From IMG/VR virus record IMGVR_UViG_3300002052_000002, positions 1-64,000 of that record: 64,000 nt of DNA; one strand, written 5' to 3'. Under the pieces are notes generated by a model. The model was not told the origin of the DNA. It saw only the letters and a list, made by a program, of their open reading frames with translations, and did no database searches. Positions 18,179-35,164 of this stretch are shown in pieces; the first letter of the stretch is position 1; each line of letters begins with the position of its first letter. A program made the position numbers and the translations under genes. This stretch comes from a virus.

Positions 18179-19060
18179 TTATAGGTTCGTTTCTTTTTTA
18201 GTAGCATAGTGTTCTTCCCTTACTCTACGTTTCACCATCAACGCAGTTTCCCTTCCAATAGCCTTTTTTGCTGCTTCGGTTATTTTAACTTCCTCTTTGC
18301 CCTCTTTCTCAATATCTTCTATCATTAAGGAAATGATTTCCCCTATATTTTCAATTGCTAATTCAACCTTCCCACTCGTGATTATATGATTTAACCTTTC
18401 CTCAGTCACCCACTCATCCACGATGTCTTTTGCTTCTTCCAACATCTTAAGTTTATCTAATACTTTCCTTGGAGTAGCTGTTTCTCTGAACTCATCCCGC
18501 TTATGTTTAGCAATTATTCTTTTACCATCGTTCTTAGTCACCTCTTCTAATGGGCGGAGAACAATTCCCTCTCTTTTATGTCCAGCTCCCATACCGTTAC
18601 GAATAGCTTGGACAGAGTCTGCATCTCTCTCCGCATCAATAGCTTCGAGAGTTGTGGGTATTCGTTTGTAATGCACAAACTCAAGTCCTAATCTCTCACA
18701 GAACTTCTCTGCTTTGAGAACGTTCAACCAAACATTCCCAATCTTTACTTCGAAGCAAACGAATTTTGGTGCATCTCCGTAAGTAGCTGACATCCTTTGG
18801 AATTTACTACCATAGAACTCTCCGTATACGTGGATACTCCTATTTGGAGGAGATACCTCTTTGAATATCTCAAGCAATTTCCCCTCATCAAATAACTTTA
18901 CGAATATTTTATGAGGAAATCCGCCTGAGAAGAATGATATATTACCATTCTTATAACTAATATGAGCGGAAGTTCCATGTATCTTTTCCAGCGCATAGCA
19001 CTCTTTGAATTGAAAGATGTCTTGATTTTTGTAGAGATTATCTATATCCATATAGCTCAT
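18179..19060 (-). CDS. Rnl2-family ATP-dependent RNA ligase (start moved to ATG 19060)
   Basis: Motif I EKIHGTS, III YGEFYG, IIIa FVCFEV, IV REGIVLRP, V IAKHK; GGGAGG RBS before MSYMDIDNLY. Confidence 0.88.
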   Translation of the reverse strand: MSYMDIDNLYKNQDIFQFKECYALEKIHGTSAHISYKNGNISFFSGGFPHKIFVKLFDEGKLLEIFKEVSPPNRSIHVYGEFYGSKFQRMSATYGDAPKFVCFEVKIGNVWLNVLKAEKFCERLGLEFVHYKRIPTTLEAIDAERDADSVQAIRNGMGAGHKREGIVLRPLEEVTKNDGKRIIAKHKRDEFRETATPRKVLDKLKMLEEAKDIVDEWVTEERLNHIITSGKVELAIENIGEIISLMIEDIEKEGKEEVKITEAAKKAIGRETALMVKRRVREEHYATKKETNL

Positions 19061-19081
19061 ATAACGCCTCCCTATAAAATC

Positions 19082-19119
19082 AGATTGGCTTTTCAAGGGT
19101 TAGTTGCTGAAACCAATCT
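19082..19119 (-). ncRNA. CAGCAA hairpin element 1 (in RNA ligase leader)
   Basis: AGATTGG-TTTCAGCAA-CTAACCCTTGAAAAG-CCAATCT. Confidence 0.8.
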
Positions 19120-19435
19120 TCGAAGATTTGCAGGATAGATAGGATTCCTCATCCTGCGAGTTATTTATAAATACCTATTGGGCCAAAATACACTATCAGT
19201 CGAAACATCTCCCGAAGAACCACAAATATCTCGATAATAGAATTCCGTATGACAGTGTACACAAATTCCTTCAGATTTGAGAATTTTGCAGATGGCTTGA
19301 GCTGCCTTTTTACTTAATCCGTTTAACCGTGTATCACCTGTTATGATATAATGTTTTTTCCTCCACAAAAGTTTCTCTCTACTATTAATTTCGTATCTCA
19401 TAAGACCTCCTTTAGTCATCCCCTCTAAACTATTC

Positions 19436-19489
19436 AGGCTGGAGGTTTTCAGATTAAATGTCTGAGCCTTTGGTTGCTGAAACCAGCCT
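19436..19489 (-). ncRNA. CAGCAA hairpin element 2 with tRNA-Lys-like anticodon arm
   Basis: AGGCTGG-TTTCAGCAA-CCAAAGGC-TCAGA-CATTTAA-TCTGA-AAACCT-CCAGCCT. Confidence 0.8.
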
Positions 19490-19934
19490 TCAACACTTAT
19501 ATTATCTTTACCTGATTAAGTTCGATGAAAAACTTCTCTCCGCAACCTGCACACTGTAGATAGACAGGATTATTTCTGTCGTCTCTTATTCTGAAGAATG
19601 CGTAGCCACAACTACATACCCACGTTCTTGGTTCTACTACTACAGGAGACCAGTGGGCTTCTCGTTTTAGTGTTGGTTTTGTGGCATGGGAACCAATCCA
19701 AAATTTTATACTCATCTCTTTCCCCCTCTCTTACTTAACTTCATTGGGTTGATTTTCTTTTTACTTGTTGGGTCAATTACTACAGGTAGTATGTGAGTTC
19801 TACTTGCACATCCGCCCAGCTTTGTCCATAATTTAGTAGGCTCTACGTGCCTATCACAAATCTGCCCCCATTTGATATGGTCACATCCTTCATCTTGTTG
19901 GCACTTCTGATGGAGCTCTAAGTTACTGAATTGA

Positions 19935-21142: not shown

Positions 21143-21200
21143 AGATTGACTAGTGGGTTCGACCCCACCATTTATCCAAGTGTTGTGCGGAAGTCAATCT
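21143..21200 (-). ncRNA. Divergent hairpin element 3 (CCGCAC variant)
   Basis: 9-bp stem AGATTGACT/AGTCAATCT with TCCGCAC at the motif position and an internal hairpin. Confidence 0.6.
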
Positions 21201-22962: not shown

Positions 22963-23111
22963 AGATTGGCTTTTTTCAGGGTTCTATTGCTGAAACCAAT
23001 CTTTGAAGATTCACAGGATAGCTTTTTTCATAGTTTGGTTGCTGAAACTATCCTTCTAAACTATTCAGAGTGGTATTTGTCCGTGCAAGGATTTATTGCT
23101 GTAACCACTCT
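22963..23111 (-). ncRNA. Tandem array of three CAGCAA hairpins (22963-23002, 23015-23054, 23067-23111)
   Basis: Stems AGATTGG/CCAATCT, AGGATAG/CTATCCT, AGAGTGGT/ACCACTCT, each followed by T(T/A)CAGCAA; 12-nt linkers. Confidence 0.85.
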
Positions 23112-25271: not shown

Positions 25272-26747
25272 TTATCCCTTTGTCCTCCTTTTCCTTGGAA
25301 TCTTAATCTTATATTTCTCAAGCGTCCTTAACATAACACCTTTAGGAGTCAAGTCTTCCGCACCAAAGATGGCTTTCAATATAGCTGGACTAAAGCCAGA
25401 TACTAATGCCACATTCTTATGTTTCGTAGTCGTTGGTTGTCCCGCATAACCAGTCGTATTCCAATAGACAACTTGAGGAATATCATATCCAGCCTCAAGC
25501 CATTCATCCAATACATTCTCAACCTCTGCTTTCTTACCTGTTGTTCCTTGATGGAACTGCATATCAGAAACGATAAGAAGCATATTAGGCATGCCCTCTT
25601 TCGATACGTTGAAGAACTTCGCTGCTTTTAATAATGTTCTTAATGCTTTAGCTATCTGCGTAGAGCCAACCGCACCATCAAAGATGGTATGACTCTTCAC
25701 CGCTTGAGAGAACTTCATACCATTCCAATCCTTAAGTTTGCCCTCAGAGCAGAAAGCTAGGAACTTCTTATAGAATGGATTGTCCTTGGGAATCTTAGCG
25801 GAGCAGTATAATGCCATCCCTTGGCTGATGTGAACAGCTTGCACAGAGCCACTTACTGCTGTGCTCATAGAACCAGAAGTATCACAGACTACAATAGGTC
25901 TTGCTCCTGTTTCCATGTAATTTGGTAGGGCATCAAACTGTGCATCGGCAATCTTGCTATCACCACTAAGTACAGTTCTTACACAGTCGTGTGGAAACAG
26001 CACATCACTATGGATAGTCGCTTTGCCCTTTTCCAAAGCTTCCTTATACGCTTCGAATCTCTCCGCATCATGCCTTCCAAATGCTTTGGTGTAGCGTGCC
26101 ATAGCCACTGAAGGAACATGCTCGTATGTAATTTTGTTCCATTGATTTGAACACATCTTATACTCAACGATGTGGTCTTTCCGAATCTCAGCGAGGATTT
26201 TCCTAAATGCCCTCTCATTTAACGAGCCTGCTCTTCGCAAAGGCTTATCGCTTCTGTCTGCCCACTTAGCAGCCAGCACATCCTTCTCACTCAAAGCGTG
26301 TGTCCATAGCTTTACAGCTATCTTCTCACACTCTGTGCCGAATAGAGTGCGAAGGTCATCCCACCTTCCAACCAATGGAATCCAGCCAATATTGAGGTCA
26401 ATCCATCTTGGGTCTTCCTTAGCCAACCATCCAAGACAGGCTCTGAATCCACTTCTATTCCCTGCTCCACCACGACAATCTCTCAGCCATAATAGAAGCT
26501 TAAAAGATACTGTTGGGTCAACTATCCAGGTCTTTTGGAACAGAGATAAAGCGGAATCTTCGCTGCCGTAGAAGGTTCCCTTCTTAATAAATAGAGAACC
26601 AGCCTTACTAAAGAATTCCACAGCATGGTCTAGAGAATGCTCATACTGTTTCGCTCCTTCATGTGTCTTATCAGGAGTCTTTGGAATCCTATAGTCTTCC
26701 CCTTCCATCTCTTCATCTTCAAATTCGTCTTCGTAATCGTCCCACAT
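25272..26747 (-). CDS. DUF2828 family protein (Ro60/TROVE-like helical region plus vWA domain); start moved to ATG 26747
   Basis: LWLRDCRGGAG.R, GRWDDL, LAAKWA, I.Y.HVPSVAMARY.KAF, MIDAS VCDTSGSM, SDMQF, VVYWN, ALVSGFSP; AGGAGG RBS. Confidence 0.88.
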   Translation of the reverse strand: MWDDYEDEFEDEEMEGEDYRIPKTPDKTHEGAKQYEHSLDHAVEFFSKAGSLFIKKGTFYGSEDSALSLFQKTWIVDPTVSFKLLLWLRDCRGGAGNRSGFRACLGWLAKEDPRWIDLNIGWIPLVGRWDDLRTLFGTECEKIAVKLWTHALSEKDVLAAKWADRSDKPLRRAGSLNERAFRKILAEIRKDHIVEYKMCSNQWNKITYEHVPSVAMARYTKAFGRHDAERFEAYKEALEKGKATIHSDVLFPHDCVRTVLSGDSKIADAQFDALPNYMETGARPIVVCDTSGSMSTAVSGSVQAVHISQGMALYCSAKIPKDNPFYKKFLAFCSEGKLKDWNGMKFSQAVKSHTIFDGAVGSTQIAKALRTLLKAAKFFNVSKEGMPNMLLIVSDMQFHQGTTGKKAEVENVLDEWLEAGYDIPQVVYWNTTGYAGQPTTTKHKNVALVSGFSPAILKAIFGAEDLTPKGVMLRTLEKYKIKIPRKRRTKG

Positions 26748-34340: not shown

Positions 34341-34455
34341 GGACTCATCAGTGTAGCTATGAGCTACATATAGGGGAGCATCAGATTGATTTGGGTTTGC
34401 ATTCACGCAGTTTAGTTGCGGAAATCAACCTTCAACTGCTCCCTCTATTTCGTCC
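34341..34455 (-). ncRNA. Type II hammerhead ribozyme, predicted cleavage after AUA (between 34369 and 34368)
   Basis: GGAC-GAAA-[stem III TAGAGGGAGCA...TGCTCCCCTA]-TA-[stem I TGTAGCT-CAT-AGCTACA]-CTGATGA-GTCC; complete conserved core. Confidence 0.9.
34383..34431 (-). ncRNA. Hairpin element 7 (CCGCAA variant) nested in hammerhead stem III
   Basis: AGGTTGATT-TCCGCAA-...-AATCAATCT. Confidence 0.75.
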
Positions 34456-34463
34456 TTCTATGC

Positions 34464-34508
34464 AGGTTGGAATTGTCCGTATAAGGGTTTAATTGCTGTA
34501 TCCAACCT
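34464..34508 (-). ncRNA. CAGCAA hairpin element 8, immediately 5' of the hammerhead
   Basis: AGGTTGGA-TACAGCAA-TTAAACCCTTATACGGACAAT-TCCAACCT. Confidence 0.8.
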
Positions 34509-35164
34509 TCATATAGGATTAATCGCCGATAGACACCTTCAACTCCTCTTCTAGTAGCGGCTTCAATTCCGCCCTATCCTGTGCATTGAACCCCTTGATT
34601 TCACGAGCGAATTCGCCAACAGACTGGTTATGGAGTTTACCAAAGAATCGGCTACAAGCAGCAGCAAAACTAATCTTCTCTCCGTCTGCCATTCTTGTCA
34701 CCCCTTTCTTATTTGGATTTAAAAGAACAATATAGATAAGGGATAAGGGAAGGATAGAAGATGGGAAGTAATCAAGACCATTTAGTAGCGGTATCTAAAC
34801 GCCCTTAGAACCGCCCAGAGCTTTTTCAGTTCGAGCTTATTTAGCATGGCTACATCCCATGAGAAGTGAATAGGGTAGCCATTAAGGGTATACATCGAAT
34901 CGACAGGAACCAACTCTTCTATGACCTTTGGCATTGACTCTTTACCTTTCTTTTTTTGCCAATATATGTCATGAAGAATGGAAGATGTACATCGGTATCT
35001 ATTGACCAACTTCTCATCCAACTCAATCGGCATATTGTTGACAACGATTACCATAGCGTATTCCCCTTTCTGCAGTAAAGGGAACTGCGACTTCCCTTTC
35101 CTTCTTCCTTTCCCTTTCCCTTATTCTATTTTCAAAGAGCTGTAAAGTGGTGTCAAATAGGCAT

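Follow-up and report, generated by a model that had tools for sequence, protein, structure and literature searches.

We analysed the first 64 kb (positions 1 to 64,000, hereafter the window) of a 112.9-kb phage-like contig, IMG/VR virus record IMGVR_UViG_3300002052_000002, and found eight copies of a small RNA element, every one intergenic and on the minus strand. The elements, named A to H, share a covarying 7-bp closing stem and the motif UUWCAGCAA, which we call the handle, around a variable interior. The handle belongs to a real family in other viral contigs, where the interiors are enriched in hairpins with the stem length and loop consensus of tRNA anticodon arms. As it travels with a gene for a DUF2828 protein predicted to fold like Ro60, the handle RNAs are most likely Y-RNA-like partners of this protein that display parts of tRNAs. 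The overall reading, in which these Y-RNA-like RNAs would present the tRNA parts as baits, is in our judgement evenly balanced; it draws on the anatomy, the covariation, the arm enrichment and the DUF2828 linkage that we observed, together with the modelled Ro60-like fold.

The handle family

The family was collected from viral contigs with two pattern scans in the code of the International Union of Pure and Applied Chemistry (IUPAC); the patterns described the handle only and left the variable part unspecified. Hits of the first scan were mostly chance, the real ones being at loci L022, L043 and L061, and perhaps L024 and L071. After filtering for motif plus pairing, 118 elements (103 unique) at 57 loci were retained, compared with 2 in reversed-sequence controls. 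In an alignment of 33 members made with covariance model R1, pairing of the closing stem is 100%, five of its seven pairs have compensatory changes, and its covariation score was 0.691 against 0.207 in shuffled alignments, with none of 500 shuffles reaching so high. The same stem in the eight window elements varies in the sequence of its arms and always keeps its pairing; element B scores 61.6 bits with R1.

The consensus of the family runs (U/A)NNA, AG-R-N-U-N-R, U-U-W-C-A-G-C-A-A, A-Y-A-A-A ... A-rich, arm'-CU, G-U-U, or, in short form, A, AG plus 5 nt, UUWCAGCAA-AYAAA ... A-rich, 5 nt plus CU, GUU. No Rfam 15 model finds the handle. Rfam searches of the window at the gathering score and of its 18–36 kb part at E ≤ 5 returned no match, those of the three tandem copies (C, D and E) alone gave chance microRNA-type matches only, with RF01414 absent, and megablast of 18–24 kb against phage records found no match. 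Neither a CAGCAA handle nor bare anticodon arms are described in the phage Ro60 literature that we searched, which reports CGAA-type Yrl RNAs (PMC12135203) and the tRNA-like YrlA (PMC4201824).

Readings of the handle as a ribozyme (hammerhead, pistol or other), CRISPR-repeat mimicry, type III antitoxin repeats, an integron attC site, a promoter or a terminator were dropped, because the stems covary around a loop motif that is fixed, the copies are not near-identical, and there is no shared U-run or hexamer.

Handle RNAs of the relatives usually lie in phage tRNA arrays; ARAGORN finds zero tRNA or transfer-messenger RNA (tmRNA) genes in the whole 112.9-kb contig studied here. Handle-bearing arrays also hold a GOLLD RNA (169.9 bits), tmRNAs and a match to a ribozyme like that of hepatitis delta virus (42.2 bits against a threshold of 44), at L061 1698–2985 and at L022 1404–1472 and 9414–9770.

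Transfer RNA parts in the variable interior

Cargo was counted in 95 unique elements from viral contigs other than the window. Canonical anticodon arms, with a 5-bp stem and a 7-nt CU-NNN-R-A loop, were present in 21 of them, as compared to 0.31 ± 0.55 in shuffled sequences (maximum 3 in 500), which corresponds to a family-wide enrichment of about 70-fold. Under the looser rule YU-NNN-R-N the count was 24 against 2.5, and T-arm-like hairpins were found in 16 elements against 0.2 in shuffles. Anticodon mimicry in the variable parts had been proposed in an earlier, sequence-only reading of the window, and the enrichment of the loop consensus across homologous elements bears this out for the family.

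Most arms start 16–24 nt past the 5' arm of the closing stem, where tRNA positions 8–26 span 19 nt; arms accompanied by other tRNA-like parts in the same element start further in. The loops found repeatedly are CUUUUAA (four times), CUUGUAA (three), CUCAUAA and CUUCUAA (two each), while CUGUUAA, CUUUGGA, CUCUUAA, CUGCAAA, CUUCCAA, CUUGAAA, CUGAAAA, CUGGUAA, CUUAUAA and CUACAAA occur once; by type, Lys-UUU is the commonest, followed by Thr-UGU. Real tRNAs of the same contigs (ARAGORN) have the same loops in the case of CUUUUAA, CUUGUAA, CUCAUAA, CUGUUAA, CUUCUAA, CUUGAAA, CUGCAAA, CUUCCAA, CUCUUAA and CUGAAAA. The stems of the element arms are AU-rich and unlike those of the same-contig tRNAs, so the arms are not simple copies of neighbouring tRNA genes.

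Comparison of orthologues gave what look like signs of selection on the arms. For example, the only difference between L099 and L121 is a C-G pair of the arm exchanged for G-C, a compensatory change. The arm UUCAA-CUUGUAA-UUGAA (UGU) of L098 and L209 shares its stem with UUCAA-CUUUUAA-UUGAA (UUU) of L099 and L149, so that the anticodon varies on a constant stem. Position 33 is U in 21 of 26 C-N-NNN-R-A loops, C in 2, A in 2 and G in 1, and corresponding elements of Escherichia phage HY02 and contig L194 differ there (CCGGUAA versus CUGGUAA). The cargo of the family ranges from nothing to a whole tRNA: many members have no arm at all, and some hold a complete permuted tRNA-like domain with T-arm, closed acceptor stem and D-arm.

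Two handles, at L032 3394 and L199 4442, surround what seems to be an entire tRNA, with D-arm, anticodon arm and T-arm in their normal order; in one of them the anticodon loop is CAUCAAA, with A33 followed by UCA. Between handle RNAs at L091 9726–9800 and L093 9723–9795 there is an odd tRNA-like gene with a good acceptor stem and T-arm, in which a normal D-arm and anticodon arm could not be placed by eye; ARAGORN predicts one tRNA at each of these loci.

The anticodon-arm-like hairpin of element B

Within the window, an anticodon arm is found in element B, which lies in the 77-nt gap between minus-strand open reading frames 19165–19419 and 19497–19715. The motif UUUCAGCAA stands directly 3' of the 5' arm of its closing stem, and the 31-nt variable part contains the hairpin UCAGA-CAUUUAA-UCUGA, read on the minus strand from 19465 to 19449. 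The sequence-only reading had described it as a 5-bp stem with a 7-nt loop, which is correct, and it is part of the minimum-free-energy structure that RNAfold predicts for the element. The arm starts 17 nt past the 5' arm and ends 6 nt before the 3' arm, an arrangement shared with L092, L122, L134 and L149, and there is no U-run 3' of it.

When the variable part was shuffled with its dinucleotides kept, a 5-bp/7-nt hairpin appeared in 3.7% of the shuffles, and one with a loop at most one mismatch from CU-NNN-R-A in 0.5%; by itself, this result for one copy with A33 is suggestive. The nearest real arm, GCAGA-CUUUUAA-UCUGA, belongs to the tRNA-Lys(UUU) of Escherichia phage HY02 and contig L194 (ARAGORN), and element B equals it at 15 of 17 positions, with mismatches at positions 27 and 33. 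With regard to the rule Y32/U33/R37/A38, element B has C32, A37 and A38 and lacks U33. This uridine is near-universal in tRNAs, where it forms the U-turn.

Anticodon-loop-like heptamers had also been noticed in the copies at 19082, 22963, 23015, 23067 and 34464, and the whole set had been suggested to form a panel of decoys against different anticodon nucleases. None of these five has a 5-bp stem, 57–80% of dinucleotide shuffles hold as many YU-NNN-R-N heptamers, and no 5-bp/7-nt hairpin is found in any of the seven other window copies. The heptamers of the three short copies (19082, 22963 and 23015) look alike because their UGAA is predicted by RNAfold to pair with the UUCA of the conserved motif. 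Across the eight copies, the cargo amounts to one anticodon arm, one T-arm-like hairpin (21143) and six with little or none. The idea of a panel within the window is not supported, as an arm is present in one copy of eight, with A33, and the remaining heptamers are at chance level.

Linkage to a DUF2828 protein with a Ro60-like predicted fold

A tblastn search found the DUF2828 protein of the window in 693 phage records. Among 49 loci identified from the DNA pattern alone, at least 15 also encode, within the flanks that were fetched, a DUF2828 homologue with 30–36% identity; as a rule its gene neighbours the elements and shares their strand. Homologues with 60–70% identity, at L091, L092 and L093, have four to five tandem elements directly upstream of the DUF2828 gene on the same strand. 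The association extends to named phages, whose elements have the CAGCAA core next to a paired 7-nt stem. Elements lie beside the DUF2828 gene in Escherichia phage HY02 (Felixounavirus), Aeromonas phage LAh_6 (eight copies, one with UUUGA-CUUUUAA-UCAAA), Campylobacter phage NCTC12673 (CAUUA-CUGAUAA-UGAUG), Listeria phage LP-064, Bacillus phage Nate and Mycobacterium phage Wyatt2 (UUUCA-AUGGUAA-UGAAA). A literature search on DUF2828 returned nothing about phages.

The start codon of the DUF2828 gene was reassigned. An AlphaFold2 (AF2) model of the protein made with a 36-sequence alignment had a predicted local distance difference test score (pLDDT) of 82, as compared to 38 for the single-sequence model, which was unusable. 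Foldseek matched the former to Ro60/TROVE structures in all of its top 11 matches, with template modelling (TM) scores up to 0.61; the model agrees with Ro60 over its full length, as in Xenopus Ro60 (1yvr; E 3.9e-10, TM 0.61), and the Ro60 of Thermus phage phiLo (9l5y) and Deinococcus Rsr (2nvo) were also found. The model suggests that the DUF2828 protein folds like Ro60, with a HEAT-repeat ring plus a von Willebrand factor A (vWA) domain. At the sequence level, a profile ranks Ro60 first, weakly (1yvp, E 0.003), Pfam does not match TROVE to the protein, and phmmer against the sequences of the Protein Data Bank (PDB) gave no match.

The N-terminus of the protein carries a highly acidic extension (MWDDYEDEFEDEEMEGEDY...; 26691–26747, minus strand). 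This extension is absent from the 62–70% identical homologues of L091 and L092, which start M(F/I)(S)KTHEG.

Proposed role of the handle RNAs and alternative explanations

We propose that the eight elements are small structured RNAs transcribed off the minus strand and probably cut from early transcripts. They are members of a widespread phage family that consists of two parts, a constant handle and an exchangeable inner cargo. The handle would most likely be the docking site for the phage Ro60-like DUF2828-vWA protein, which would make the elements functional analogues of Y RNAs. The cargo usually corresponds to part of a tRNA, which may be an anticodon stem-loop alone, a T-arm, or, as in YrlA, an entire permuted tRNA-like domain. 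Element B represents the anticodon-arm type, with a tRNA-Lys(UUU) arm in which U33 has become A. Such an arm may be a bait aimed at a protein with affinity for the anticodon arm of tRNA-Lys; an anticodon nuclease of the host is the most plausible candidate. With A33 the arm may bind yet be poorly cut. Docking of the handle on the protein is suggested by the linkage and by analogy with Ro60 and Y RNAs (PMC4201824, PMC12135203), and a Y-RNA-like ribonucleoprotein of this kind is the best-supported reading. Stable accumulation of the RNAs and the bait or decoy role of the arms are further inferences.

Cleavage of tRNA is a major anti-phage strategy (PrrC, PARIS, retron-Eco7, OLD, Schlafen). Three reports agree with the bait idea. 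In the Felix O1-like phage Bas63, a Ro60-like protein whose gene lies just upstream of tRNA genes counters Ppl defence (bioRxiv 10.1101/2024.10.10.617714). PARIS AriB cuts tRNA-Lys(UUU) and P2 OLD cuts tRNA-Thr(UGU) (PMC12445682), and these target types are the two commonest arm types in our sample. Phage tRNAs also evade nucleases via changes in the anticodon arm (PMC10264068). More speculatively, and with clearly less confidence than for the reading as a whole, the Ro60-like particle may be a modular display platform, with the CAGCAA handle on the ring protein and interchangeable tRNA parts, chiefly bare anticodon arms of the tRNAs (Lys-UUU, Thr-UGU, Met-CAU, Asn, Arg, Gln) that are targets of bacterial immune nucleases; the parts would trap or inhibit these nucleases, variants at position 33, such as CAUUUAA in the window, perhaps being uncleavable inhibitors.

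Several other explanations were weighed. The handles could have arisen in tRNA arrays and picked up tRNA fragments by recombination, in which case only the handle would matter and the arm of element B would be decaying (U33A) and functionless. Such debris would agree with the position of the elements, often inside tRNA arrays, in the relatives, with cargo that runs from nothing to whole tRNAs, with A33 in element B and five other window copies that are armless, and with a genome that has no tRNA genes. However, most arms stand at a similar distance from the handle, their stems are unlike those of nearby tRNA genes, a compensatory stem change separates L099 from L121, and orthologues with different anticodons have the same stem (UUCAA-CUUGUAA-UUGAA versus UUCAA-CUUUUAA-UUGAA), and we regard debris as rather improbable. 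We also assign a low probability to a role as tether or sensor, in which the arm would bring a tRNA-binding enzyme (for modification, for repair by Rnl2 or a kinase-phosphatase, or an exonuclease) to the Ro-like particle, or in which cleavage of the arm would report an attack on tRNA. Y RNAs do act as tethers, for example of PNPase (polynucleotide phosphorylase) to Ro60 (PMC4201824), a phage Ro60 occurs with Yrl and host PNPase (PMC12135203), and the Salmonella rsr-yrlBA-rtcBA repair operon responds to damaged tRNAs (PMC7790460). The Rnl2-type RNA ligase gene adjoining element A would suit this role, but the adjacency is not conserved in relatives, so the link between the elements and the RNA ligase is weak; at 11 loci with Rnl2 homologues in viral contigs, no element was present within 4 kb. 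The present data do not separate tether from decoy.

The two remaining explanations are much less probable. For an ordinary intergenic hairpin (terminator, RNase site or translational operator) that resembles an arm by chance, one can point to the 3.7% of shuffles with a 5-bp/7-nt hairpin and to a loop that violates the U33 rule. Nevertheless, the hairpin sits in a family member at the usual arm position of the family, 15 of its 17 positions are those of a real tRNA-Lys arm, no U-run comes after it, and the arm enrichment across the family is about 70-fold; this explanation is already disfavoured and we consider it very unlikely. Least credible of all are reduced but functional decoding tRNAs without D- and T-arms, like some mitochondrial tRNAs. 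In their favour, the end stem has 7 bp, some 19 nt precede the arm, and the anticodon loop is canonical in many relatives. Against them, ARAGORN and the Rfam tRNA model (RF00005) detect no tRNA in this genome, a T-arm to be bound by elongation factor Tu (EF-Tu), RNase P or the CCA-adding enzyme is lacking, the 3' side, G-U-U, is not a CCA context, and many members are armless.

The reading as Y-RNA-like handle RNAs that present tRNA parts as baits has its own difficulties. The window elements are 2–9 kb from the DUF2828 gene and none is adjacent, the nearest being about 2 kb away (23111 versus 25272). The handle does not have the CGAA-type Ro-binding motif of known Y RNAs, and expression, processing and protein binding of the RNAs are predictions from the sequence. 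Only one window copy of eight holds an arm, and as this arm is without U33 it may be a decaying copy and not a working mimic. The correspondence between arm types and nuclease targets involves small counts (4 and 3), uncorrected for the frequency of these anticodons among phage tRNAs, and the arms could have another role, namely to recruit the ribosome, repair enzymes or enzymes that modify tRNA.

If the arms are baits, a function could be assigned to DUF2828, present in 693 phage records, and the handle RNAs would form a class of RNA anti-defence that is new and differs from both spare tRNAs and tRNA repair; the tRNA target of the host nuclease could then be predicted from the bait sequence of the phage. 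Ro60 and Y RNAs are conserved from bacteria to humans; to our knowledge, the role of the variable Y-RNA module is mostly unknown. Here this module can be read from the sequence as an anticodon arm, a T-arm or a tRNA-like domain.

Features of the window

The first 36 kb or so of the window have their genes on the minus strand. The features discussed are collected in Table 1.

Table 1. Handle elements and associated genes in the 64-kb window
Feature	Coordinates	Strand	Description
Rnl2-type RNA ligase	18179..19066	-	Pfam, PHROGs; directly downstream of element A
Element A	19082..19119	-	Short copy; 15-nt variable part, no arm; motif UUCAG predicted paired with UUGAA
Element B	19436..19489	-	5' arm AGGCUGG 19483-19489; motif UUUCAGCAA 19474-19482; 3' arm CCAGCCU 19436-19442
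Anticodon-arm-like hairpin	19449..19465	-	UCAGA-CAUUUAA-UCUGA; C32, A33, UUU, A37, A38; sequence, RNAfold, shuffles
Element H	21143..21200	-	Divergent motif UUCCGCAC; variable part with T-arm-like hairpin GUGGG-GUCGAA-CCCAC
Element C	22963..23002	-	Short copy; first of three tandem copies
Element D	23015..23054	-	Short copy; in tandem with C and E
Element E	23067..23111	-	22-nt variable part; inner helix only 3 bp
DUF2828 + DUF7788 protein	25272..26747	-	Likely partner of the elements; Pfam; ring-plus-vWA Ro60-like predicted fold
Element F	34383..34431	-	Motif UUUCCGCAA; within stem III of candidate hammerhead
Element G	34464..34508	-	Motif AUACAGCAA

Two partial or degenerate copies adjoin listed elements (plus-strand coordinates): CAGGATAG begins one right after copy A, without the motif (19124–19165), and TTAATCGCCGATAGACACCTTCAA, similar to the end of the motif, follows copy G (34512–34545). 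Around element F, a candidate type II hammerhead core was recognised by eye at 34341–34455 on the minus strand, with the order GGAC-GAAA, stem III, AUA, stem I, CUGAUGA-GUCC. Its stem III has 10 bp with one bulge and encloses element F, and stem I pairs UGUAGC with GCUACA; cleavage would release the 3' side of element F. An Rfam scan at E ≤ 5 reported no hammerhead at 34341–34455, perhaps because of the insert of about 70 nt in stem III.

Comparison with known systems

The hairpin of element B resembles the canonical tRNA anticodon stem-loop in its 5-bp stem, 7-nt loop, C32, UUU at positions 34–36, A37 and A38, and differs from it in having A33 for U33; D-arm, T-arm and acceptor end are missing from element B. 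In common with phage nuclease-resistant tRNAs (van den Berg 2023, PMC10264068) and the rescue tRNAs for PARIS, retron-Eco7 and OLD (PMC12445682; PMC11555353), the arms match tRNAs that are attacked by host nucleases; in the phage tRNAs, changes in the arm affect cleavage. Those tRNAs, however, are complete, decode and replace lost tRNAs, whereas the handle RNAs, which have only isolated arms on a scaffold that is not a tRNA, are unable to decode.

Dictyostelid Class I RNAs (RF01414; Kjellin et al. 2021, PMC7919456) are similar to the handle RNAs: they are about 60 nt long and end in CUGU, their short end stem is conserved in structure and not in sequence, a conserved motif immediately follows the 5' strand of this stem, and the rest varies. 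RF01414 matches the handle RNA at L043 7982–8041 with 29.6 bits, below its gathering score of 41.5. Unlike the handle RNAs, Class I RNAs are eukaryotic and have a known protein partner with an RNA recognition motif (RRM).

The closest comparison is with the YrlA/YrlB Y RNAs of bacterial and phage Ro60 (RF02553; Chen et al. 2014, PMC4201824; phiLo Ro60-Yrl, PMC12135203). Here the protein is DUF2828 and not Pfam TROVE, in contrast to the TROVE-plus-vWA Ro60 of Y RNA systems, and the handle motif is UUWCAGCAA and not GNCGAA(N)G, CGAA or GGUCCGA. The Ro-binding motif of Y RNAs is not found in the handle, with only copy A happening to read UUCGAAG, and RF02553 matched no window copy. Most members, unlike YrlA, are 40–70 nt long with an anticodon arm only, a T-arm only or nothing, and their copies are multiple (eight here) and dispersed. 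On the other hand, both groups are small RNAs that, in relatives of the window elements, stand beside a gene for a predicted Ro60 fold, and both pair their ends in a closing stem whose 5' side bears a motif, protein-binding in YrlA and putatively so in the handle. In both, the inner module mimics tRNA. For example, the family member at L043 13549–13670, the best relative by RF02553 (43.4 bits, below the gathering threshold of 69), has the same V-T-AS-D permuted tRNA-like domain, by the topology given for YrlA (PMC4201824).
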